Source: Labilithrix sp. (GTDB lineage: Bacteria > Myxococcota_A > Polyangia > Polyangiales > Polyangiaceae). Taken from it: 64,000 bases of DNA. Of this stretch, positions 3,937-23,917 are shown piece after piece. The position numbers and the translations under genes are program-made. Each line of letters begins with the position of its first letter. The first letter of the stretch is position 1. The notes under the pieces are model-generated. The model was not told where the DNA came from. It made no database searches and saw nothing but the letters and a program-made list of their open reading frames with translations. Location of the stretch: positions 187,730 through 251,729 of the forward strand of contig JAXLYU010000014.1 in NCBI GenBank assembly GCA_046351255.1, written 5' to 3'.

Positions 3937-4998
<1,062 letters not shown>

Positions 4999-11688: not shown

Positions 11689-12989
11689 GCACACCTCGCT
11701 TCGCGAAGCTCGCAACCGATCTCATCGCCGAGGAGGGGGAGCCCCGCGCCCCGTCGAGCGAGGCCGAGATCAAGGCCGTCGCCGCGATCGAGGACGCGCT
11801 CGCGCGCCGTCGTCGTGCGCGTCGCACATCGCAGATCGTCGGTGTGATGGCGGCCGCGGCCATGATCGCGGCCGTGTTCGGCGGGTGGCTGTCGCGACGT
11901 GAGCCGCACGCGCATGTCGCGCCGGGCCCCTCGTCCGCGCCTGCCCCCACGCCCTCGCCCTCCTCCTCGCCCACGCCCGCGTCGACACCGGAGACCGTGA
12001 TCGCGGCCCAGGCGATCGAGCCCGCGGAGGGCGCCGTCGTGGCGCGCGATGGTCGCACCGCGAGCCTCGCACCGTCGATGAGCCTCGCGAGCGGTGACCG
12101 CATCGAGTCCTCGCCGAAGGGGGGCACGGGCATCGCGCTCGCCGACGGGTCGCTCGTCCGGATCGATCCGGGCTCCGAGATCTCGGTGAAGGCGCTCTCG
12201 GACACGCGTCGCTTCCTCTTGAGCCGGGGCTCGCTCCGCGCCGACGTGGCGAAGCTCGGGCCCGCGCAGCGCTTCATCGTCGAGACGGAGGACGCGGAGG
12301 TCGAGGTGCACGGCACGTCCTTCCGCGTCGCGATCCGCGAGGGCTCGAGCGCGTGCCCGGCGCGAACGCAGGTCGAGGTGACCGAGGGTGTCGTGAGCGT
12401 GCGCTCGGCCGGCGTCGACGTGCGGCTCGGCCCGGGCTCGAGCTGGCCGGCGTGCGCGGCCCCCGCACCCCGACCGGACCTCACCACGATGCGCGCCTCG
12501 GAGCGCGCTCCGGACTCGTCGCCCCGCGTCTCCGACACGGGCGCCCGCCGGGGATCGTTGCCCCCGTCGTCGCCGCTCCCGGCGGCCGGTCCGGTTGCCG
12601 GCCCGGCAAGCGGGAGTGCCACCGGCTCGCACGCTCTCGCCGAACAGAACGAGCTCTTTGCGAAGGCGTCCGCCGCGCGTCGCGCCGGGGATGGCCCGGC
12701 CGCCGTCGCGGCCTACGATCGACTCATCGCGACCCACCCGGACGGCTTCCTCGCGGAGAGCGCCGCGGTCGAGCGGATGCGCGTGCTCGAAGGGATGAGC
12801 CACGCGCGCGGGCGCGAGGCGGCCGCGGCGTATCTCGCGCGCTATCGAACGGATTCGCGCGCGTCGAGGCCCAGCGCCTGGCCCAGTGACGCCACGCCCT
12901 CATGGGCTCCGACCAAATCGACCTTCGGTCTGCCTGATCTCCGCGGCGAGAGGGCACAGCGGACGAGAACTTCCGCGAGGTGCTCATGA
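11685..12989 (+). CDS. FecR-family anti-sigma factor (single transmembrane segment)
   Basis: TTG at 11685 overlaps the sigma stop (TTGA). A transmembrane helix IVGVMAAAAMIAAVFGGWL is present. The FecR domain reads GSEISVKALSDTRRFLLSRGSLRADV...VEVHGTSFRVAI. Confidence 0.7.
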   Translation: MSTPRFAKLATDLIAEEGEPRAPSSEAEIKAVAAIEDALARRRRARRTSQIVGVMAAAAMIAAVFGGWLSRREPHAHVAPGPSSAPAPTPSPSSSPTPASTPETVIAAQAIEPAEGAVVARDGRTASLAPSMSLASGDRIESSPKGGTGIALADGSLVRIDPGSEISVKALSDTRRFLLSRGSLRADVAKLGPAQRFIVETEDAEVEVHGTSFRVAIREGSSACPARTQVEVTEGVVSVRSAGVDVRLGPGSSWPACAAPAPRPDLTTMRASERAPDSSPRVSDTGARRGSLPPSSPLPAAGPVAGPASGSATGSHALAEQNELFAKASAARRAGDGPAAVAAYDRLIATHPDGFLAESAAVERMRVLEGMSHARGREAAAAYLARYRTDSRASRPSAWPSDATPSWAPTKSTFGLPDLRGERAQRTRTSARCS

Positions 12990-14827
12990 GCCGCTTCCGT
13001 CTGTCTGCATGGATCTCGATCTCGGCTTCGATGGCCCTCGTGGCCCTCGCGGCCATCGGCGCCCCCGCCTGCGGTAGCTCCGATGCTGGCGACATACCGC
13101 CCGTGACTACGGCGGACGGAGGCGGCGGGACGTCGACCTCGTCCGGCGCGGCCTCGAGCTCGGGAGCCTCGAGCTCGGGAGCCTCGAGCTCGGGAGCCTC
13201 GAGCTCTGGTGCCTCGAGCTCCTCCTCCTCGAGCTCCGGCTCGCTCGACGCGTCGTCTGACGCGCCGAACGACGCAGCGCTGGCCTGCGGTGACCTCGGC
13301 CAGACGTGCTGCGCGACGGGTACGGCGTGTACCAACGGCGCGTGCGTCGGCGGTCTCTGCCAGCCATGCGGCGGACCGGGTCAGACGTGCTGCGCCGGTC
13401 GCTCGTGCGTCGACGGACAGGCGTGCACCGGAAACGGACGAGGCCTCTGCACCGCCTGTGGTGGCAACGCGCAGACGTGCTGCGCTGGGAACTCGTGCGG
13501 CGCCGGCGGCTGTTGCGTCGGCAACTTCTGCACGTCCTCGGGCAACACCTGTCCGACGGTGGGCGGCACGTGCGGCGCGGGCAGCTGCGGGACCTGCGGC
13601 GCTCTCACGCAACCGTGCTGCGCTGGAAACACGTGCACCGCGGCCGGCGCGACGTGCAACCCAGGCACGAATACCTGCGTCGCTTGTGGTGGCGCCGGGC
13701 AGGCCTGCTGCGGTGGAAATACGTGTACCGCGGCCGGCACGACGTGCGCGGGCAACCAGTGCGTCGCGTGCGGCGGCCCTGGTCAGCCTTGCTGCGCGGG
13801 CAACGCCTGCGGCGCGGGCAACGCCTGCAACGCGGCTCGTCTCTGCGAGGCTTGCGGCGGCAGCGGCGAGATCTGCTGCGCCGGCGCGACGTGCGGCGGG
13901 GGCGGCTGCTGCGACCCGGCCAACGATCACTGCGTGACCGCTGCCTCCACGTGCTCCTTCGGCGGCGCGTGCACGGGCGGCAAGTGCTCCGTCTGCGGCG
14001 CGGCCCACGAGGCGTGCTGTCCGGGCGACACGTGCGGCGGCGGCGGCTGCTGCAGCGGCGGTGTCTGCTACGCGTCGGGCGAATCGATCCCCGGCACGGC
14101 GAACGTCTGCAATGCGGGCACGGCCACCGCGTGTGGTGTCGATGGTCAGGCGTGCTGTGGAGGCGGCGCGTGTACGACGGCCACGTCCTGTTGCGTGGCG
14201 GGCAAGTGCGTGGGCACCGGCACGACCTGCGGCGGTGCGCTCGGCACCTGCTCGAGCGGCAGCTGCTCCACGGGCGGCGGCGCGGGCAACCAGTGTGGCG
14301 CGGCAGGTCAGAACTGCTGCCCCGGCGGCGCGAACAACGCGGCCGACTTCTGCACGGGTCCGGGCCTGACCTGCGGCGACAACGGAAAGTGCGCGTCCTG
14401 CGGCGCTCCGGGCGAACCGTGCTGCGGCGGGTCCGCCTGCAACGGCGGCGGCTGCTGCAACCAGGACACGAACCGCTGCATCGCCTCGGGCGCCGCGTGC
14501 CCCGGCGCCCTCGGCACCTGCTCGAACGGCGGCTGCGGCGCGTGCGGCGGCTTCGGCGAGCCGTGCTGCGGGGGCGACGTCGAGTGCACGGCGCCGTTCA
14601 CGCGCTGCGGTAACAACAACGTCTGCCTCGCGTGTGGCGGCAGCGGCCAGCGCTGCTGCCCGTCGCAAGGCGATGGTGACTTCTGCGGCGCAGGCTTCGT
14701 CTGCCGCGGCGGCGGAGGCAATCCCTCCTCGTGCGTCGCGTGCGGAGGCCCGGGCCAGGCGTGCTGCGCGGGCAACCTCTGCAAGACTGGTAGCTGCACT
14801 GGGGGCACCGGCCTCTGCCCGCCGTGA
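12986..14827 (+). CDS. Secreted cysteine-rich tandem-repeat protein, family A (~20 repeats)
   Basis: ATG at 12986 (GTG at 12980) overlaps the FecR gene end. Signal peptide MSRFRLSAWISISASMALVALAAIGAPAC, then a Ser-rich linker and about 20 copies of CGGxGQxCCxGNxCxxxGxxC. It is a paralogue of 3937..4998. Confidence 0.75.
   Translation: MSRFRLSAWISISASMALVALAAIGAPACGSSDAGDIPPVTTADGGGGTSTSSGAASSSGASSSGASSSGASSSGASSSSSSSSGSLDASSDAPNDAALACGDLGQTCCATGTACTNGACVGGLCQPCGGPGQTCCAGRSCVDGQACTGNGRGLCTACGGNAQTCCAGNSCGAGGCCVGNFCTSSGNTCPTVGGTCGAGSCGTCGALTQPCCAGNTCTAAGATCNPGTNTCVACGGAGQACCGGNTCTAAGTTCAGNQCVACGGPGQPCCAGNACGAGNACNAARLCEACGGSGEICCAGATCGGGGCCDPANDHCVTAASTCSFGGACTGGKCSVCGAAHEACCPGDTCGGGGCCSGGVCYASGESIPGTANVCNAGTATACGVDGQACCGGGACTTATSCCVAGKCVGTGTTCGGALGTCSSGSCSTGGGAGNQCGAAGQNCCPGGANNAADFCTGPGLTCGDNGKCASCGAPGEPCCGGSACNGGGCCNQDTNRCIASGAACPGALGTCSNGGCGACGGFGEPCCGGDVECTAPFTRCGNNNVCLACGGSGQRCCPSQGDGDFCGAGFVCRGGGGNPSSCVACGGPGQACCAGNLCKTGSCTGGTGLCPP
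13151..13225. repeat. 15-bp tandem repeat (gcctcgagctcggga) x3 perfect plus 2 variants, encoding (ASSSG)n linker
   Basis: Read directly from the sequence. Lies inside the Cys-rich gene 12986..14827. Confidence 0.8.
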
Positions 14828-14878: not shown

Positions 14879-15622
14879 TCAGTCACACCCTGACATGACG
14901 GACGTGCTGGTGCCCGTGGTCGAGTTGGGGATGGACACCCAGCTGCAGCCCGGGCCGCTCCCCCCGCTCGCGCCGCTCTTCGTCTGCCACGTGTTCACGG
15001 ACTGCGATTGCGCGGCCTTTGCGCGCTGCACGACGTTTCCGAGCGGAGCGCCGTTCTTGCTCAGGTTCCCCTTCGCGTCGAGGTCGTAGGCGCCGACGTA
15101 CTGATAGACGTTGCCCGGATCGCCGCCGAAGATGCGGATCAGGTAGTCACGCTCCACGCGCGTGATCTCGCGCCCGTTGACGAGGATCGACGTGTCACCG
15201 TTCGAGGCATCGCGCGCGAGCGGCGCGGCGTTGAGGCCGGCCTTGGCCACGCCACCGGCGCCATGGCCGACGAGGCCGTAGAGGCCGGAGCGCGCGTCGT
15301 ACCAGTAATTCCCGGGCACCGGACGTGTGCCGAGCATCGCGGCGAGCTCCTTCATCTCCGCGTCGTCGAGCGTCTTGCCGTTGATGACGACGGCGGTCGG
15401 CGCAGGCGCGGGGGCCGGCGCAGGCGCGGACGCGGACGTCGACACGGACGCGCTCGCCGGCGCGGCCGACCCGGACGCGCTCTCCGCCGGCGCGCTGGAC
15501 GTCGGATTCGAGCTGTTCGGCGGAGAGCCGGGCGTTTGCATTGGCTTGTTCAGGCTCTGCGCCGCCTCGTTCATCGCCGCGCAACCCGTCATGACCAGGA
15601 CGATCGCTATTCGACCTCTCAT
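14879..15622 (-). CDS. Lipoprotein, hypothetical
   Basis: ATG at 15622 (MRGRIAIVLVMTGCAAM) has a lipobox, then a Pro/Ser/Ala-rich linker and a C-terminal globular domain. It lies downstream of the SMI1/KNR4-like gene. The first 55 aa of the track ORF are extension. Confidence 0.55.
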   Translation of the reverse strand: MRGRIAIVLVMTGCAAMNEAAQSLNKPMQTPGSPPNSSNPTSSAPAESASGSAAPASASVSTSASAPAPAPAPAPTAVVINGKTLDDAEMKELAAMLGTRPVPGNYWYDARSGLYGLVGHGAGGVAKAGLNAAPLARDASNGDTSILVNGREITRVERDYLIRIFGGDPGNVYQYVGAYDLDAKGNLSKNGAPLGNVVQRAKAAQSQSVNTWQTKSGASGGSGPGCSWVSIPNSTTGTSTSVMSGCD

Positions 15623-15806: not shown

Positions 15807-16283
15807 CTAACCCTTCACGCCCGCCTTCGTCGGCGCGAGATCGAGGCACTTGTAGTCACCGCCGCCGCTGTCCGAGGAGGGGAACCAGCCCTTGTCCCAG
15901 AAGACCGGACGCACGCGCTCGTCGTCGTCCTCGACGCGGTAGCCCTTCATCATCTTCGCGAGGTCCTTCTGACGATGCATCGCCTGCGCCGACCTTGCGA
16001 GTGAGAGCACACCCCACGGAAACGGCCCGCCGCCGAGATCGCCTTCGCCCCCGTCATGCAGCGCGCGCCAGGCCAGGTAGTCGTCCGGCAGCTTCCGCTC
16101 CAAGGCCGCCTTCAGGTCGTCCTTCGACGCGATCGTGTCGACGTAAGCGGCCCAGCCAAGACGAAGCCTCTCCACGGGCTCGGCGCTCGGCTTCACGCCG
16201 AGCGCTCGGCCGATCGCAGCCAGGCGTGCTTCATCCAGCTTCGAACCGGTGCTCCGCGTGACGCGATAGATCTTCGTCGCCAT
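15807..16283 (-). CDS. SMI1/KNR4 (SUKH-1) family protein
   Basis: LPDDYLAWRALHDGGEGDLGGGPFPWGV and FPSSDSGGGDYKCLDLAP match the conserved SMI1/KNR4 blocks (...GGG.Y.CLD). Confidence 0.55.
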   Translation of the reverse strand: MATKIYRVTRSTGSKLDEARLAAIGRALGVKPSAEPVERLRLGWAAYVDTIASKDDLKAALERKLPDDYLAWRALHDGGEGDLGGGPFPWGVLSLARSAQAMHRQKDLAKMMKGYRVEDDDERVRPVFWDKGWFPSSDSGGGDYKCLDLAPTKAGVKG

Positions 16284-16303
16284 GAGCCGGGTGTATCACG
16301 AGG

Positions 16304-17839
16304 CTAAGACGCGATGTAGGCCGCCACCGCGTCGTGATCGAGGTGAACGAGCAGGATCACGAAGTCGCCCGGCTCCGCCTCGGACAGCGCGACGCGTAGA
16401 GAGTCGACCTCGGAGTCGGCCGCGCGTAGCTCCGTGAAGCCTCGGCGGGCGAACGCGCCGCGAAAGAACGCGGTGACGTCGCCGAGGGCGCGGCCGCGGA
16501 GATAGTCCGGCATCTCGCGCAGGATCACGCTCCTGGGCTGCGCCTCGACGACATGGCGCGCCATCTCGTCGAGCTCGTGGTCCGTGCGATCTCCCGCGCT
16601 GCCGAGGCAGACGAAGAGGCGTCCTGCGCCGCGGAGCTGGCGTACGAGCCCCATCACGGCGCGAATGCCGTCGGGGTTGTGCCCGAAATCGAGGAGCACG
16701 CGGACGCCGTTCTTCTCCGCGAGCGCGGTGCGGCGCGGGTTCTCCGCCGTCGTGAAGCCGGTGAGCGCGCGACGGATGGCGTCGTCCGGTAGGCCGAGCG
16801 CGGTCGCCGCCGCCGCGACGCCGAGCGCGTTCGCGACGTTGAAGCGCGCCGCGCCGCGAAAGGTGAGGGGGATCTCGTCGACCTGACCGAGCTCGATCTC
16901 ACCGCGCCGGATGCGGCCGTTCTCGGCCACCACGGACTCGCCGCGGTGTCCGCGGTGGCCCTCGACGACGGCGCGCGCCTCGGGGGCGGTGTCGAGATCG
17001 GCATAGAGGAGCACGCGTCGATCCGCGAAGCGCTTCGCGAGCGCGGCGAGGCGCGGATCCGCCGCGTTCAGCACGACCGCCTTCGCCGCCTCCGCGATCA
17101 CGGCCTTCACGTTCGTCATCGCGTCGAGATCGTCGATGCCGTAGGAGCCGAGGTGGTCGTCGCTGATGTTCGTCATGAGCGCGACGTCGCAGCGATCGAT
17201 CGCGAGCCCGCGCCGGAGGATCCCGCCACGCGCCGTCTCGAGCACGGCGAGGTCCACGTCGGTCCGGCGCAGGACGACGCGCGCCGCCTGCGGTCCCGTC
17301 CAGTCGCCGGCGGAGATGACCTGGCCGCCGATCGCGATCGCGTCGCTCGACGTCACGCCGACGGTCCGGCCGGCCTCCATCGCCACGCGCGCGAGCCAGC
17401 GCGTCGAGGTCGTCTTCCCGTTCGTGCCCGTGACGAGGGCGATCGGGACGCGACCGAGTCGATCCCACGGCACCTCGGCGACGTCCGGCACGGCGTGGCG
17501 CGGCCACGTCGCGGAGGAGCCGGTCCCATAGCCGACGCTGACCTCCTCGTCGTCCCACAAGAAGGGCAGATCGCGCGCGCGCGCCTCCGCCTCGAGGCGC
17601 CGCAGGCCTGGGCTGCGATCGCGCGCGAGGATCGCGTCGATCTCGGTCCGCTTCGGCTCGAGCTCGAGCGGCGCCGCGCCGGACATGCGCGCGCAGGCGC
17701 TCATCGCCGCCCACTCCGTCATCTCCGTGCACGCGAGCATCACGTCGATCGGCTCGACGTACGCGATCACGATCCCGCCGTGATGCGGGCGCTGGAGGAG
17801 GCCGGAGACGGCGGGCGGAAACCCGAAGGCCTCCCGCAT
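16304..17839 (-). CDS. Stand-alone Mur-ligase-type protein, paralogue of the cyanophycin synthetase M domain
   Basis: IPIALVTGTNGKTTSTRWLA (P-loop), AVLETARGG and DHLG align residue-by-residue with the M-domain of the adjacent CphA (IPIAAITGTNGKTTTARMLA...AVLETARGG...ADHLG). No ATP-grasp domain is present. Confidence 0.8.
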   Translation of the reverse strand: MREAFGFPPAVSGLLQRPHHGGIVIAYVEPIDVMLACTEMTEWAAMSACARMSGAAPLELEPKRTEIDAILARDRSPGLRRLEAEARARDLPFLWDDEEVSVGYGTGSSATWPRHAVPDVAEVPWDRLGRVPIALVTGTNGKTTSTRWLARVAMEAGRTVGVTSSDAIAIGGQVISAGDWTGPQAARVVLRRTDVDLAVLETARGGILRRGLAIDRCDVALMTNISDDHLGSYGIDDLDAMTNVKAVIAEAAKAVVLNAADPRLAALAKRFADRRVLLYADLDTAPEARAVVEGHRGHRGESVVAENGRIRRGEIELGQVDEIPLTFRGAARFNVANALGVAAAATALGLPDDAIRRALTGFTTAENPRRTALAEKNGVRVLLDFGHNPDGIRAVMGLVRQLRGAGRLFVCLGSAGDRTDHELDEMARHVVEAQPRSVILREMPDYLRGRALGDVTAFFRGAFARRGFTELRAADSEVDSLRVALSEAEPGDFVILLVHLDHDAVAAYIAS

Positions 17840-17976
17840 CCGTGCCAGCTCGGCGAGGTACAGCTCGCGCGCGCGCGCGGGCTCTTCTCCCGGATCGAGC
17901 TCGAGCTCGACTTGAACGAGCGGATGCCCCGCGAGGAAGTTCGGCCCCGTGAGCCGGCGCGCGGTCTCCAGATACC

Positions 17977-20787
17977 TCAGTCGTCGCTCTCCCTCGCGAT
18001 GCGCACGCCGCGCTCGTCCTGGATGACGGTGGCGCCGTCGAGCATGACCTCACCGACCGCGACCGAGGAGCCGCGCGCCGCCGGCACCGCCGCGTGTGAG
18101 GGCGCGGGCGGAGGCGTGGAGCCCTCGTGACTGTCGGGCTTGAAGTAGATGACCTGCTTCCAGGAGCGAGAGACCTTGTCCGCGAAGAGGAGGAGGAGGT
18201 CGCCGCGGCGGGCCATGCGGAGCGCGGCGTCGATCGCGGCCGGCTCCTCCACCACCATCTGGATCTTCTCCTTCGGGAAGCCGCTCGCGACGAGCTCGTC
18301 GTGGAGCATCTTCGGCACCTCGTCGGGCTGGCGCCCGCGCGGATCGTCGTCGCGGCGCACGATGACGTGATCGAAGGGACCACGAGCCACCGCGCGCGCG
18401 ATGTTGCGGATGTCCTCGTCGCGGCGATCGCCAGGGCCGGCGACGACGCAGATGCGCCGGCCGCTGCACTCGAGGCGCTGCACGAGGTCGACCATGGCCT
18501 GCACCGCGGGCGCGTTGTGTCCGTAATCGAGGACCACCTTGAACGGGTGATCGTTGAACACGTTCGTGCGCCCCGGCACCTGGAAATACGAGTTGTCGAA
18601 GGTGCGGAGGCCCTGGCGGATGTTCTCGATGCGAACGCCCATCGCGTAGGCCATGGCCGCCGCGAAGAGTGCATTCTGCACGTTGTGCATCGCCTTGCCC
18701 TCGATGGTGGCCGGGATGAGGTGCGTCCAGAGCAGGGGCGTGAGCGCGCCCTTGTCGTAGAGCGTGATCATGTGCCCGTTGATGCCCTCCTCGAGGACGA
18801 CGGCGAGGCCGCCCGCGCGGATGTGCTTGCGCACGAGGTCGTGCCGCGGGTTCATGGTGACGTACGCGATGCGCTCCGCCTCCGTGTGGTCTGCCATGCG
18901 GAGGCACTGGATGTCGTCCGCGTTGAGCACGGCGCAGTCGGTGGCGACCTCCACCACGATGCGCTTCACCTCCGCGAGCTGCTCGATCGTCTCGACGCCG
19001 CGATCGCCGAGGTGATCGGCCTGGACGTTGAGGACCGCGCCGACATCGCACTTGCGATAGCCCATGCCCGCGCGGAGCAGGCCGCCGCGCGCGGTCTCGA
19101 GGACGGCGAGGCTGACGGACGGATCGCGAAGGACGATCTGTGCGGACGCGGGGCCGGTCATGTCACCGGTCACGGTGCGCTCGCCGTCGATGTAGACGCC
19201 GTCGGTCGTGGTGAGGCCGACGGTGTGGCCGTTCATCTTCTGGATGTGCGCGAGCATGCGCGCGGTCGTCGTCTTGCCGTTCGTGCCCGTGATGGCGGCG
19301 ATCGGGATGCGTGACGGCGTCCCTGGCGGGAACAGCATGTCCATGACGGGCGCGGCCACGTCACGCGGCTTTCCTTCGGTGGGCGCCACGTGCATGCGGA
19401 AGCCGGGGGCCGCGTTCACCTCGCAGATGCCACCGCCGACCTCGCGATAGCTCTGCGTGATGTCGGAGGTGATGAAGTCGACGCCGCACACGTCGAGGCC
19501 AATCGCCTTCGCGGCGCGGATCGCCATCTCGCGGTTGTCGGGGTGGACGGAGTCGGTGAGGTCGATCGCGGTGCCGCCCGTCGAGAGGTTACCGGTGCCG
19601 CGCAGGAAGAGGCGCTCGCCGTCGGGGAGCACGGTCTCCTTCGTGACGCCCGCCTTCGCCATGAGGCGCGCCGCCTGCTCGTCGAGCTCGAGGCGCGTGA
19701 GGACCTTCTCGTGCCCGATGCCGCGACGCGGATCCTGGTTCACGATGTCGACCAGCTCCGCGATCGTGTGCTTGCCGTCGCCGACGACGTGGCCCGGCAC
19801 GCGCTTCGCGACCGCGACGAGATCGCCGCCGATGACGAGCATGCGGTGATCGAAGCCGGCGAGGAAGTTCTCCACGACCACGCTGCGCGCGTGCTCTCGG
19901 GCCTTCTCGAACGCGACCTTCACCTCGTCCTCGGTCTTCAGATCGAGCGAGACGCCCCGGCCGTGGTTCGCGTCGAGCGGCTTCACCACGACGGGGAAGC
20001 CGAGGCGCTTCGCGGCGGCGACCGCGCCCTCGGGCGAGCGCACGAGGCGCTGGCGCGGCACGGGCAGGCCGAGGTCGCCGAGGATGTGGTTCGTCTCTTC
20101 CTTGTCGGAGGCGATCGACACTGCGATGTGGCGCGTCTCGGACGTGACCGTGGCCTGGATGCGCTTCTGGTACTTGCCGTGTCCGAACTGGACGAGGCTG
20201 TAGTCGTTGAGGCGGAGCCACGGGATGCCGCGGGCCTCTGCGGCGCGGACGAGCGAGCCCGTGGACGGGCCGAGCTGACGCCGCTGCGCGTAGTCGATGA
20301 GCTCGACGAGCTCGGTCTTGAAATCGAAGGGCTCTTCCTTCTCCGTCGCCTCCGCGTTCACGGCGGGCCGGAGATCGGCGGGGAGCAGGTGGTGCAGCAG
20401 CTTCAGCGCGAGATCGGCCGCCGCCTCTCCGACGCGCTCTTCCTCGTACTCGTAGACCACGTGGTAGCGGCCCTTGGTGCCCTCGCTCCGCGTCTTGCCG
20501 AAGGTGACCTGCGCGCCCGTGAGCTGCTGGAGCTCGATCGCGACGTGCTCGAGGACGTGCCCGAGCCAGGTGCCTTCCTCGAGGCGCTGGAGGAAGCCGC
20601 CCTCGACGCCGACGCTGCACGTGTGCGACTTCAGGCTCGGAAGCGCGGTGGTGAGCGCGGCGTTGAAGCCGGGGATCTTCGCGCTCGGCCAGTCCTCGAG
20701 CTTTCCAAGGTCGACCGTGAGGCGCATGACGGGGAAGTGCGCGTAGAGGCTGGGACCTCGGTAGACGCGGCGTTCGAGCAGCTCCAT
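17977..20787 (-). CDS. cphA: Cyanophycin synthetase CphA
   Basis: 936 aa with an N-domain (MELLERRVYRGPSLYAHFPV), an ATP-grasp G-domain and a Mur-ligase M-domain (ITGTNGKTTT, VLETARGG). An AGGAGA-like RBS lies upstream. Confidence 0.9.
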   Translation of the reverse strand: MELLERRVYRGPSLYAHFPVMRLTVDLGKLEDWPSAKIPGFNAALTTALPSLKSHTCSVGVEGGFLQRLEEGTWLGHVLEHVAIELQQLTGAQVTFGKTRSEGTKGRYHVVYEYEEERVGEAAADLALKLLHHLLPADLRPAVNAEATEKEEPFDFKTELVELIDYAQRRQLGPSTGSLVRAAEARGIPWLRLNDYSLVQFGHGKYQKRIQATVTSETRHIAVSIASDKEETNHILGDLGLPVPRQRLVRSPEGAVAAAKRLGFPVVVKPLDANHGRGVSLDLKTEDEVKVAFEKAREHARSVVVENFLAGFDHRMLVIGGDLVAVAKRVPGHVVGDGKHTIAELVDIVNQDPRRGIGHEKVLTRLELDEQAARLMAKAGVTKETVLPDGERLFLRGTGNLSTGGTAIDLTDSVHPDNREMAIRAAKAIGLDVCGVDFITSDITQSYREVGGGICEVNAAPGFRMHVAPTEGKPRDVAAPVMDMLFPPGTPSRIPIAAITGTNGKTTTARMLAHIQKMNGHTVGLTTTDGVYIDGERTVTGDMTGPASAQIVLRDPSVSLAVLETARGGLLRAGMGYRKCDVGAVLNVQADHLGDRGVETIEQLAEVKRIVVEVATDCAVLNADDIQCLRMADHTEAERIAYVTMNPRHDLVRKHIRAGGLAVVLEEGINGHMITLYDKGALTPLLWTHLIPATIEGKAMHNVQNALFAAAMAYAMGVRIENIRQGLRTFDNSYFQVPGRTNVFNDHPFKVVLDYGHNAPAVQAMVDLVQRLECSGRRICVVAGPGDRRDEDIRNIARAVARGPFDHVIVRRDDDPRGRQPDEVPKMLHDELVASGFPKEKIQMVVEEPAAIDAALRMARRGDLLLLFADKVSRSWKQVIYFKPDSHEGSTPPPAPSHAAVPAARGSSVAVGEVMLDGATVIQDERGVRIARESDD

Positions 20788-20794
20788 CTCTCTC

Positions 20795-21622
20795 CTAGCT
20801 TTCGGAAGGTGCGCTTGCGCGGCGCGTCTCGAGGTCGAAGGTGCCGCCTGCGGTGAGGACGTGCAGGCGAATGTTGGTGAGGCTCACGGGGCGCCCCTCT
20901 TTCGTCTCGGCGATCGACGAGTGCGTCAGCTCCGATGCGTCGACGATGGTGAGCGCGCCGGTGCCGACGACGGTGAGCTTGCGCGCGTGATCGATGAAGG
21001 CGGCGGTGTCCTCGTCGAGCCCGACGCCGACCGCGAACGGGTTGTACGCGAGCGCGGTGAGCAGGCGGCCGAGGCGATCGCGCTGGCGGAAGTGCTGGTC
21101 GATCATGATGCGGTTGGTGAGCCCGAACCCGGGCGCGAGCGACACCTTGCCCGCCTTCGGCGTGTGCCCCTCCTCGCCGTACGCGATCATGTGCTCGCTG
21201 AGGATGGCGGCACCGGCGCTCGTACCGCCGACGGTCGCGCCGCGCGCGTTCGCGCGCCGGATCGCCTTGGCCATGGGCGTCCCGCCGATGATGGTGGAGA
21301 GGCGGAGCTGGTTGCCGCCGGTGACGAAGATGCCGTCCGCCTCGCTGATGTACGTCAGCCACTCGTCGCGCGTGCAGTCGTCGCGCTTGAAGAGCGGGAG
21401 CGCCTTCGCCTCGTCGGCGCCGAGCTTGCGAAAGAGCTTCTCGTAGCGGCGCCCGGTGTCCTCGAGCTTGGAGGCGGTGGGGATCACGACGATGCGCGAG
21501 CCCTTGCCGCCGGAGACCTCGAGGAAGCGACGCAGAATATCGGACGGCCCGTCCTTGTCCTCGGCGCCGCCGATGGGGACGATGAATCCGCGCTTCTTGT
21601 CCGGCTCTACCTTTGCTGGCAT
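20795..21622 (-). CDS. cphB: Cyanophycinase CphB (peptidase S51)
   Basis: 275 aa. Carries the GGTSAGAAI serine motif and VIPTAS... blocks typical of cyanophycinase. It is immediately upstream of cphA on the same strand. Confidence 0.85.
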   Translation of the reverse strand: MPAKVEPDKKRGFIVPIGGAEDKDGPSDILRRFLEVSGGKGSRIVVIPTASKLEDTGRRYEKLFRKLGADEAKALPLFKRDDCTRDEWLTYISEADGIFVTGGNQLRLSTIIGGTPMAKAIRRANARGATVGGTSAGAAILSEHMIAYGEEGHTPKAGKVSLAPGFGLTNRIMIDQHFRQRDRLGRLLTALAYNPFAVGVGLDEDTAAFIDHARKLTVVGTGALTIVDASELTHSSIAETKEGRPVSLTNIRLHVLTAGGTFDLETRRASAPSES

Positions 21623-21847
21623 TCGATTGCTCTCGTCTCGTGATCTAGCGGTTACGGCTCGTTGCGAACACCGAAACGCGCTTCGCTAACACGTCTCCCG
21701 GGTCGCTGTCCTCGTCAAGGCCCAGTGACGGTTTCGAGCCAGAAACATGGGGCGAACGGCCCGGGGAGCGCCCGCGGAACGCCCACTTTCCCTGGCGACG
21801 CCGGGGCGGGGCTGTTCTATACCGGCGGTCAACCAGGGGGGCTCGAT

Positions 21848-22627
21848 ATGAAGCGCATCGGACTCGCGATCGTAGGCCTGCTCGCGGCCGGCTGTGCGGC
21901 GCTGAACGGCTCATCCGGCCCGGCCGTCGCGTCCCCGGTGGAGAAGACCTCTCCGTCGAGCGCGGCCGCGACGGGGGAGGAGGCCACGGCCACGGCCACG
22001 GCCACCGCCGCCGCAGAAGCGGCGGAGCCCGAGCCGATCCCCACCTCCTGTGGCGGCGAGCAGCCGATCAATGACGTGAAGGCCTGCCTCGTGCCGGAGG
22101 ACTTCGTGAAGAAGCTCTGCACCGGCTCGTACCCCGACGTCACGCTGTGGCTCTTCGCGAAGGGCACCCCGTGGACGCGAGTGTGGCTCTCCGGCGACGT
22201 CGAGGCGTGGAGCGCGAGCGGAGGCTTCACGAGCCGCACGAAGCTCGCGTTCGACGAGGAGGTGCTCGTGCTCACGCGCCACGCGGCGCCGAGCGGCGCG
22301 AACGGCATCGTGGTCACGAGCGCGGGCGCTAGCTTCGACGTCCTCCGCTGGGACGGCACGTGCGTCTCGGTGCAGGAGGGTGAGGTGACGGCCAAGCGCC
22401 CGCCGGCCCCCAAGCAAGCGCTCATGCGGTGGGCGAAGCTCGAGGAGGCCACGCGCGGCGCGCTCCTCGCGTCGGCGGCGGTGAAGACGAGCCAGGGCGC
22501 GCTCGAGAAGGCGTGCAGCGGTGACAAGACCTCGTGCGAGCGCGCGGAGAAGGACCTCTCGCTCGCCATCGCGAACGCGGTCCGCGCGGGCGGCACGGAG
22601 CTCCCGGCTCCCACGCGCCGTCCCTGA
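21848..22627 (+). CDS. Lipoprotein, hypothetical
   Basis: ATG at 21848 (MKRIGLAIVGLLAAGCAAL) has a lipobox. It is divergent from cphB. The 62-aa upstream part of the track ORF is extension. Confidence 0.55.
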   Translation: MKRIGLAIVGLLAAGCAALNGSSGPAVASPVEKTSPSSAAATGEEATATATATAAAEAAEPEPIPTSCGGEQPINDVKACLVPEDFVKKLCTGSYPDVTLWLFAKGTPWTRVWLSGDVEAWSASGGFTSRTKLAFDEEVLVLTRHAAPSGANGIVVTSAGASFDVLRWDGTCVSVQEGEVTAKRPPAPKQALMRWAKLEEATRGALLASAAVKTSQGALEKACSGDKTSCERAEKDLSLAIANAVRAGGTELPAPTRRP

Positions 22628-22708
22628 AAATCGAGGGCGCGGCCGCTCCTGGCGGGCGCTTCAGGGTGTCGTCTTCGGAGGGCCGATGCGCTAGAGGGGC
22701 GTTCACGC

Positions 22709-23917
22709 ATGGCCGACCCTCTTCTTCTTTTGCGGAATGCCGATGTCCATGCGCCGGAGCCGCTCGGACGGCGCGACGTGCTCGTCGGCGGCGGGCGCGT
22801 GCTCGCCATCGAGGAGCGCATCGGGGAGCTGCCGAGCGTCGGCGTCGCGGGCATGGCCACGCTCGATGTGGCGGGACAGCGGCTCGTGCCGGGGTTCGTC
22901 GACGCGCACGTCCACCTCACCGGCGGCGGCGGCGAGTCCGGACCGGCCTCGCGCGTGCCACGGCTCCCCTTTCGCGTGCTCGCGGAGGCGGGCGTCACCA
23001 CCGCCATCGGCGTGCTCGGCACCGACGGGACCACGCGGACCGTCGCCGCGCTCGTGTCCGCCGTCCAGGCGCTGCGCGAGGAAGGGCTCTCGGCCTGGTG
23101 CTGGACCGGGAGCTACGAGGTGCCGCCGATCACGCTCACCGGCGATGTGCGACGGGACATCGTCTATGTCGATCCCATCATCGGGGTAGGGGAGCTCGCC
23201 ATCAGCGACCACCGCTCTTCGCAGCCCACGTTCGACGAGATCGCGCGGCTCGCCGCGGACTGCCACGTCGCCGGCATGATGAGCGGCAAGGCCGGGCTCC
23301 TGCATCTGCACCTCGGCGATGGGCCGCGCGGGCTCTCGCTCGTGCGCCGTGCGCTCGACGAGACCGAGCTCCCCGCCGCCACGTTCTATCCCACGCACGT
23401 GAACCGCAAGACCGCGCTCTTCGCGGAGGCGCTCGAGCTCGCGCGGCGGGGGATGCCCATCGACGTGACCGCGTTTCCCGTCGAGGACGGCGAGGACGCG
23501 TACGACGCCGCCGACGCCATCACGCGCTACCTCGCGAGCGACGCGCCCCGCCACCTGCTCACGTGCAGCTCCGATGGCGGCGGCTGCTTGCCCAGGTTCG
23601 ATGCGAGCGGTCGGCTCTCGGCGATGGATATCGGCCGCCCGGCGGCGCTCTTCGACACGTTCGCCACGCTCCTCGCCCGCGGCGCCGCGCTCGGCGACGT
23701 CCTGCCCGTGTTCACGCGCAACGCGGCCGAGGTCTTGAGGCTCGGACGCAAAGGCCGGATCGCGGTGGGCGCCGACGCCGATCTGGTCGTGCTCGATGAC
23801 GGCGGCCGTCCGAGAGAGGTGCTCGCGCTCGGCCGACCGATCCTGCGTGACGGCGCCGTCGTCGTCACCGGGACCTTCGAGACGGCGTTCTCGCGGATCT
23901 CGAAGAGTCGGGGGTGA
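22709..23917 (+). CDS. iadA: Isoaspartyl dipeptidase (beta-aspartyl dipeptidase) IadA
   Basis: GFVDAHVHLTGGGGESG and the amidohydrolase fold over about 400 aa match IadA. It would hydrolyse the beta-Asp-Arg dipeptides released by cyanophycinase. Confidence 0.8.
   Translation: MADPLLLLRNADVHAPEPLGRRDVLVGGGRVLAIEERIGELPSVGVAGMATLDVAGQRLVPGFVDAHVHLTGGGGESGPASRVPRLPFRVLAEAGVTTAIGVLGTDGTTRTVAALVSAVQALREEGLSAWCWTGSYEVPPITLTGDVRRDIVYVDPIIGVGELAISDHRSSQPTFDEIARLAADCHVAGMMSGKAGLLHLHLGDGPRGLSLVRRALDETELPAATFYPTHVNRKTALFAEALELARRGMPIDVTAFPVEDGEDAYDAADAITRYLASDAPRHLLTCSSDGGGCLPRFDASGRLSAMDIGRPAALFDTFATLLARGAALGDVLPVFTRNAAEVLRLGRKGRIAVGADADLVVLDDGGRPREVLALGRPILRDGAVVVTGTFETAFSRISKSRG

Follow-up and report, generated by a model that had tools for sequence, protein, structure and literature searches.

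A conserved CphA paralogue lacking the ATP-grasp core accompanies cyanophycin synthetase 1 in many bacterial phyla: a candidate side-chain ligase acting in trans

Synthesis of the nitrogen-storage polymer cyanophycin has been described as the work of one enzyme, cyanophycin synthetase 1 (CphA1), with CphA2 as a cyanobacterial recycling variant. In the solved CphA1 enzymes, the M site accepts a chain with a free C-terminal Asp side chain, and this chain occupies the space between N domain and M core (PMC9427784). The N domain of 83% of CphA1s carries a Cx19HxxEH motif, the mark of a zinc endo-cyanophycinase that makes primers, and the D585A/H586A change in Synechocystis CphA1 (SuCphA1) inactivates the M domain (PMC9262961). 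CphA2 (PDB 7TA5 and 8FXH) combines an active G domain with a truncated and inactive M domain (PMC10273328). In Francisella tularensis LVS, the MglA/SspA virulence regulon depends for its full expression on a gene annotated as cphA ("putative cyanophycin synthetase"; PMC2763202). Here, a cyanophycin locus of Labilithrix sp. is described, which lies in a stretch of 64,000 nucleotides (contig JAXLYU010000014.1, positions 187,730 to 251,729; hereafter the window) and in which a full-length cphA1 is followed by a gene, called X in this report, whose product has the M domain without the ATP-grasp core. Residue conservation and synteny suggest that this product is probably an ATP-dependent side-chain ligase acting on cyanophycin in trans.

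Compared to the described enzymes, X differs in several respects. First, compared to CphA1 (e.g., PDB 7LG5, 7LGM, and 7WAC), it is a separate polypeptide without the ATP-grasp core, and its M domain belongs to a distinct clade with about 35% identity. It falls below the whole-protein cut-off for CphA1 and has neither the ATP-grasp G domain nor the Cx19HxxEH motif, whereas an M domain and an N-type domain are present. Second, X is the mirror image of CphA2, with M kept and G lost, and while CphA2 is cyanobacterial, X is found next to cphA1 in at least eight non-cyanobacterial phyla. Third, X is only 18–21% identical to MurE and other Mur ligases, has no UDP-binding N domain, and lies among cyanophycin genes rather than in a dcw context.

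The likeness of the X open reading frame (ORF) to the CphA M domain, which had been pointed out in a first-pass annotation of the window, was borne out. The two are 35% identical within the window (BLASTP, E 3e-53), and the motifs GTNGKTT, LETARGG, and DHLG are present. On the CphA model TIGR02068, X scores 325 bits (cut-off 850), matching only model positions 476–851, and on NF010623 it scores 292 bits against a cut-off of 877. A grouping with MurE or folylpolyglutamate synthase (FolC) was not found, as the MurE models of NCBIfam give 60–95 bits (cut-offs 257–1023) and the FolC model gives 43 bits (cut-off 163). No NCBIfam model reaches its own cut-off on X, and the RefSeq name is only "Mur ligase family protein." In Pfam, Mur_ligase_M (68.2 bits, cut-off 24) and Mur_ligase_C (56.9 bits, cut-off 28.4) place X in the superfamily, and no ATP-grasp match is obtained, in agreement with the earlier claim that this domain is absent. 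X therefore belongs to the Mur ligase superfamily and, as its fold indicates, to the CphA lineage; judged by its sequence, its M domain is a paralogue of the CphA M domain and not a MurE or FolC enzyme.

A comparison of 73 CphA M domains with 77 X M domains from the same loci showed that every Mur-ligase catalytic position that is invariant in the CphA1 domains is also kept in the X family. Invariant or nearly so in both sets are the P-loop G-x-N-G-K-x-T, E248, D275/H276, K292, N305, N381/N384, P415-G-R417, D431/H434/N435, G463-x-R465, and R495-x-R497. The window protein holds the P-loop (G185–T191), the Mg-binding Glu (E248), and the DH pair (D275–H276) expected of an M domain, as well as K292, N305, N381/N384, P415–R417, D431/H434/N435, G463–R465, and R495-G-R497. 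D275/H276 are the counterparts of the two residues whose replacement inactivates the M domain of SuCphA1. The median identity is 0.43 within X and 0.64 within CphA from the same genomes, and the fixation of the catalytic positions at a median identity of 0.43 indicates selection rather than recent ancestry. By these residues, X looks like an active enzyme.

The pairing of X with cphA is widespread. A genome scan with the full-length X alignment, using one genome per species, yielded 80 loci, and a full-length cphA lies upstream of X on the same strand in 66 of them, with a gap that is usually between –4 and about +100 bp. The loci come from Myxococcota, Acidobacteriota, Gemmatimonadota, Rhodothermales, Flavobacteriales, Planctomycetota, Gammaproteobacteria (Lysobacter, Luteimonas, Colwellia, Woeseia, and Steroidobacteraceae), and Alphaproteobacteria (Ruegeria, Roseovarius, Sulfitobacter, and Gemmobacter), and X stands directly downstream of full-length cphA1 in at least eight phyla. 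At these loci, cphB normally precedes cphA and iadA often precedes cphB. The exceptions to the cphA–X order are mostly contig ends; X is divergent from cphA in L061, L067, L073, and L082. The order cphB-cphA-X recurs in four metagenomic relatives (L001–L004) and in an activated-sludge metagenome (L085), in which protein P0002 is 78% identical to the window X. The first-pass annotation did not recognize the arrangement as a standard configuration and took X for an extra local copy of the M domain. The pair recurs in dozens of genomes from many phyla, and X is a widespread, ancient partner gene that forms a clade of its own.

In a neighbor-joining tree, all X M domains were separated from all CphA M domains (bootstrap 27/30), and an X M domain resembles the CphA encoded beside it (0.35) no more than it resembles the CphAs of other loci. 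Together, these results argue for one old split and not for repeated local duplication. The CphA sequence A_L002_7172 was found inside the X clade as an artefact, since it is a frameshifted cphA ORF running on into X. In that locus (L002, 7181–9989, on a 1.3-Mb contig), a frameshift near residue 347 interrupts the cphA that precedes X, and the gene is called as a 593-aa fragment, which reflects either a pseudogene or an assembly error. Full-text literature searches returned no description of the X partner, although subscription papers were beyond reach and an earlier mention is possible.

The CphA1 partners of X share a C-terminal feature. CphAs with X downstream reach about 55–60 residues past the M domain, through a variable Pro/Ala/Ser/Glu-rich linker that leads to the motif (L/V)(I/V)RDERGVR(L/I)ARE..(D/E)D, in which the last residue is always Asp. 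The motif of the window is VIQDERGVRIARESDD (18027–17980, minus strand), likewise with Asp as its last residue. The motif and the terminal Asp are present in 62 of the 63 CphAs that have X within 1.5 kb downstream and in two of the nine that do not, and both of these have X about 2 kb away. Every synonymous codon occurs at the conserved positions, which places the constraint on the peptide rather than on an RNA signal for X. The RDERGVR motif was not found in the CphAs of Caulobacter and Ralstonia or in those of loci with a divergent X, among which the CphAs of L067 and L073 still end in acidic ...ED. No alignment to the motif was obtained for the tails of the A. baylyi and T. morbirosei enzymes of known structure. 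Given its conservation, its flexible linker, and its co-occurrence with X, the tail would most simply be a docking element for the X product.

X itself is longer than its public annotation, which begins at ATG 17839 and gives 511 aa. The "137-bp gap" that had been placed between cphA and X is coding: the 511-aa ORF continues upstream without interruption as far as the stop codon of cphA, reads LRYLETARRLTGPNFLAGHPLVQVELELD... across the supposed gap, and encodes the conserved N terminus of the family (LRYLETARRLTGPNFLAGHPLVQVEL...). The gene call thus missed 47 N-terminal codons together with a CTG start, and X has 558 aa here. The open frame contains no ATG, GTG, or TTG upstream of 17839 (M48). 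The CTG at 17980–17978 overlaps the TGA of cphA (CTGA; GAC GA[C TG]A) at the place where relatives have ATG; at the homologous place, L004 reads ATG AGG CTC GTC GAC. Homologues of X have 560–600 aa and start with M-x-L-x-D-x-RRLTGPN. When the extended X was searched with phmmer against 1.84 billion representatives and the best 150 cluster representatives at 50% identity were examined, almost all had 555–600 aa, and most aligned from query residue 4–7 to about 556.

The relative in L085 shares the CTGA junction (at about 3938–3940). Across the 48 codons from CTG to the annotated ATG, the two sequences have 23 identical codons, 16 synonymous differences, and 9 non-synonymous differences, and the first 26 codons of X show 8 synonymous and 0 non-synonymous changes. 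The annotated starts are 21–47 codons too far downstream in the window and L085 (511 and 544 aa, respectively). In the AlphaFold model, residues 1–47 contribute two strands and one half of a helix to a confidently predicted domain, and a start at the annotated ATG would cut helix 34–51 and remove the two strands. On the basis of the open frame, the family alignments, the substitution pattern in L085, and this model, X is placed at 16304–17980, with the CTG overlapping the cphA stop as its probable start. An assembly error at the CTG was ruled out by the presence of the same base in the independent metagenome. X is in the –1 frame relative to cphA, and in L085 only about four sense codons lie between the in-frame upstream stop and the CTG. 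A programmed –1 frameshift fusing CphA to X is unlikely: a slippery heptamer is missing, and elsewhere in the family translation starts at an ordinary ATG or GTG, after gaps of 3–100 bp.

The extended protein is more than the bare Mur-ligase module it had been taken for, as residues 1–175 comprise a predicted CphA-like N domain and a remnant of the G domain. Since sequence hidden Markov models (HMMs) fail to place the N terminus, structure was needed. The AlphaFold model of X has a predicted local distance difference test score of 93.4 and a predicted template modeling (TM) score of 0.91, and in a Foldseek search of the PDB with the N-terminal region, the 14 best matches are all CphA1 or CphA2 (E 6.5e-6 to 5e-3, TM about 0.5–0.56). 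These matches point to a CphA-type N domain. The RRLTG motif (R8, R9, L10, T11, and G12) of this domain is invariant in the family and is not found in CphA. HxxEH is present in none of 68 X N termini, whereas C-x19/21-HxxEH is present in 69 of 69 partner CphAs. In the G-domain remnant, X reads RSPGLRRLEAEARARDLPFLWDDEEVSVGYG where CphA reads GPSTGSLVRAAEARGIPWLRLNDYSLVQFGHG; the G domain keeps its opening strands and helices and has lost about 280 residues of ATP-grasp core, lid, and omega. BLAST and phmmer gave weak matches of X 57–106 to CphA 145–204, and an hhalign comparison of the two N termini was collinear and weak, pairing X 107–157 with CphA 156–208.

Proteins with a similar layout or gene arrangement were found elsewhere. 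The proteins of Legionella adelaidensis (WP_058462805.1, 622 aa) and Deinococcus deserti (WP_012695043.1, 724 aa) have N, G-remnant, and M regions as in X and are likewise named "Mur ligase family protein." Unlike X, they keep the canonical CphA1 N domain, with 164 and 202 bits, respectively, on the CphA N-terminal HMM, and the Legionella protein also retains Cx19HxxEH. Neither matches the X N-terminal HMM beyond the G remnant, and no cphA is annotated within 6 kb of either gene. The Legionella gene, on plasmid 19 (L090, 5440–9084), is followed by genes for a cyanophycinase and an isoaspartyl peptidase; the Deinococcus gene, on plasmid 3 (L089, 5467–7641), has no cyanophycin genes beside it. 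Judging from these independent losses of the G core, the combination of N domain, G stub, and M domain seems to be viable as a module of its own.

In Ralstonia wenshanensis p56D2, two CphA-related genes, cphA and cphA', lie head to tail as at the X locus (L087, 1886–7167). Unlike X, both proteins have the G region and their full length (886 and 855 aa), and the tandem has an adjoining ABC transporter gene and no cphB. The second copy lacks HxxEH, as does X, and its M domain scores 364 bits on the X M model and 353 bits on the CphA M model, while the first copy has Cx19HxxEH and a divergent M domain. Neither protein carries the RDERGVR tail or falls clearly with X by its M domain. An identity of X with the betaproteobacterial CphA' was ruled out, given that the Ralstonia pair is full length and that the X N-terminal HMM matches neither protein. 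The Ralstonia tandem may be a division of labor reached by a different route.

The mechanism proposed for X follows the M-domain half-reaction of CphA1. X would be co-transcribed with and translationally coupled to full-length CphA1, in the window through the CTG start lying over the cphA stop. The cyanophycin chain would be bound in the cleft between the N-like domain and the M core, the free beta-carboxylate of Asp would be phosphorylated with ATP, and a basic amino acid, most probably Arg, would be ligated to the activated Asp. X would thus serve CphA1 as an accessory that catalyzes the M half of the reaction in trans, probably kept in place by the CphA tail, with the first 55 or so G-domain residues serving as a structural spacer. 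The first-pass annotation had likewise proposed an action in trans; its variants with poly-Asp as the acceptor or with priming of the polymer are speculative. X retains the N-type domain, the G piece packing between, the M core, and the lid and drops the part that extends the backbone; without the ATP-grasp core, lid, and omega, it could not extend the Asp backbone. The position of the substrate between the N domain and the M core in CphA1 would account for the retention of the N-like domain. The activity of X, cyanophycin as its substrate, the amino acid that it adds, and its recruitment by the CphA tail are all inferred.

Several observations weigh against a side-chain ligase acting in trans. 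First, the partner CphA1 keeps an intact M domain of its own, and a second one is unexplained. Second, X evolves faster than CphA, which could reflect a different or more relaxed function. Third, in the window X, R416 replaces the near-invariant Gly of the NPGR motif, a change that the window X shares with the clade around it down to about 55% identity. Fourth, X has no canonical start codon in the window and in its nearest relative, and CTG is an unusual start, so that its translation is possibly inefficient and its expression may be low. Fifth, the case for a CphA-type N domain rests on predicted structure: the hhalign match of the N domain is weak (probability 21%, P about 1e-3 to 2e-4), and Pfam gives no match at E up to 10 for residues 1–178 of five X family members.

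The alternative that survives best, although it is clearly less likely than arginylation in trans, is that X performs M-type chemistry with another specificity, either adding Lys, Orn, citrulline, or Glu or filling bare internal Asp residues. X might then tune the composition or solubility of the polymer and not duplicate the Arg-adding step. A pure duplicate does seem redundant beside an intact M domain in cis, and natural cyanophycins contain Lys and Glu side chains (PMC8560796). The old, separate clade of X, at only 35% identity to the CphA M domain, would also be in keeping with a changed substrate, and several positions are fixed differently in CphA and X (L586/T270, V643/F326, P785/A462, GDMTGP/GDysGP, and LRxG/LRRGL), as is the RRLTG of the N-like domain. 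The motifs at the Mur amino-acid site (PGR, DxxHN, GDR, and RGRxxGE in the C-terminal lobe), however, are common to X and the CphA M domain.

Another possibility, more doubtful still, is a self-priming device in which X docks on the CphA tail and arginylates the C-terminal Asp of CphA, so that a chain is begun on CphA itself. The tail Asp may mimic the bare C-terminal Asp that M-type sites require, and the protein-linked beta-Asp-Arg-like end may be extended by the G domain, by analogy with glycogen on glycogenin. The chain may later be released by the endo-cyanophycinase of the N domain. In a milder form of this proposal, the tail may be a simple tether that holds X on CphA.

The stop–start overlap, which suggests stoichiometric co-production, and the co-varying CphA tail, which looks like a docking peptide, would suit a non-catalytic structural or regulatory subunit that sits on CphA1 or cyanophycin and affects granule formation, activity, or the state of oligomerization; CphA2 is a precedent for CphA domains kept as scaffolds (PMC10273328). 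The M domain of X is nevertheless full length, whereas the inactive M of CphA2 is truncated, and the ATP-, Mg-, and phosphate-binding positions are invariant across the 77 X sequences despite their low median identity, which makes a mere scaffold improbable. Less probable again is gene decay, in which the window X would be a truncated remnant of a cphA duplication, deprived of its start codon and no longer produced at full length. The absence of ATG, GTG, and TTG upstream of M48, the 511-aa form of the public annotation, and the G416R change within a conserved motif would fit decay. Against it, the 47 upstream codons are under purifying selection by the substitution pattern given above, the CTGA junction is conserved, the remaining ORF is intact with all catalytic residues, and G416R is shared by the clade around the window X. 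Finally, a Mur, FolC, or poly-gamma-glutamate type ligase acting on the cell wall, folate, or another substrate and lying beside cphA by chance is very hard to reconcile with the 230-bit advantage of the CphA model, the lack of a Mur UDP-binding domain in a protein whose N terminus folds like CphA, and the adjacency to cphA in about 66 of 80 loci from many phyla.

The features of the locus are listed in Table 1. The window has about 70% G+C. The order of cphB and cphA on the minus strand and the N-G-M architecture of the 936-aa CphA, as first described, were confirmed by the family models and by Pfam, which finds Cyanophycin_syn N (PF18921), ATP-grasp, Mur_ligase_M, and Mur_ligase_C, corresponding to the N, G, and M domains. 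With a score above the TIGR02068 cut-off, this architecture, and the C57-x19-HxxEH motif of its N domain, the window protein is a CphA1. CphB and IadA are both above curated NCBIfam equivalog cut-offs, which upholds the earlier naming of iadA on the plus strand. The end of cphB and the start of cphA are 7 bp apart. The iadA gene is divergent from cphB in the window, whereas most related loci have the order iadA-cphB-cphA-X on the same strand.

Table 1. Coordinates of the genes and domains of the cyanophycin locus in the window
Feature	Position	Strand	Remarks
cphA1, full-length cyanophycin synthetase 1, 936 aa	17977..20787	-	TIGR02068 1163 bits (cut-off 850)
CphA C-terminal extension past the M domain, residues 885–936	17980..18135	-	Pro/Ala/Ser-rich linker and motif
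Gene X, CphA paralogue without ATP-grasp core, 558 aa and stop	16304..17980	-	Probable start CTG 17980–17978
N-like domain of X, residues 1–103	17672..17980	-	Beta-beta-alpha-beta-beta-alpha topology
G-domain remnant of X, residues 104–175	17456..17671	-	Matches the first ~55 residues of the CphA G domain
Mur-ligase-type M domain of X, residues 176–558, core and lid	16307..17455	-	Catalytic motifs present
cphB, cyanophycinase, 275 aa	20795..21622	-	TIGR02069 268 bits (cut-off 126.6); Pfam Peptidase_S51
iadA, isoaspartyl dipeptidase, 402 aa	22709..23917	+	TIGR01975 381 bits (cut-off 331.25)
Probable lipoprotein gene, read from ATG 21848 (MKRIGLAIVGLLAAGC...)	21848..22627	+	Signal peptide and lipobox in translation
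SMI1/KNR4 (SUKH-1) gene, 158 aa	15807..16283	-	PF09346 39.5 bits
Probable lipoprotein gene, read from ATG 15622 (MRGRIAIVLVMTGC...)	14879..15622	-	Signal peptide and lipobox in translation

The remaining genes vary among the loci. The SUKH-1 gene that had been reported after X is present and begins 20 bp downstream of it; such genes usually encode immunity proteins of polymorphic toxin systems. It is not present downstream of X in L001–L004 or L085. The lipoprotein genes proposed on both strands are supported by a signal peptide and a lipobox when they are read from internal ATGs, and Pfam places neither ORF in a family. The plus-strand gene sits between the divergent cphB and iadA, and the minus-strand gene is not conserved with the cyanophycin cluster. 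As the genes downstream of X differ from locus to locus, the SUKH-1 and lipoprotein genes there are not considered part of the unit. A promoter and terminator scan of 14.5–24.2 kb gave nothing above shuffled expectation, and the limits of the operon are therefore inferred from gene spacing only. The 64-kb window contains no tRNA gene and no Rfam family at the gathering threshold. At 12980–14827 on the plus strand, an ORF of 615 aa combines a signal peptide with a Ser/Gly-rich stretch and numerous Cys/Gly-rich repeats (...CCxGxxC...CxxCGGxGQxCC...) and looks like a secreted cysteine-rich repeat protein.

X is mis-annotated at present, as it carries a generic name and, in the clade of the window, is truncated because its start is CTG. 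In many non-cyanobacterial phyla, CphA1 is paired with a conserved and apparently active partner that has only the M activity, and CphA1 itself bears a matching tail. Should X affect how much polymer is made, how long its chains are, which side chains they carry, or how they are primed, the textbook account of how cyanophycin is made beyond the cyanobacteria would have to be revised. Such an effect could explain the poor performance of some CphA1s that were expressed heterologously alone, and it would offer biotechnology a new handle on polymer composition. In the evolutionary dismantling of the CphA scaffold, X would supply the missing counterpart to CphA2.

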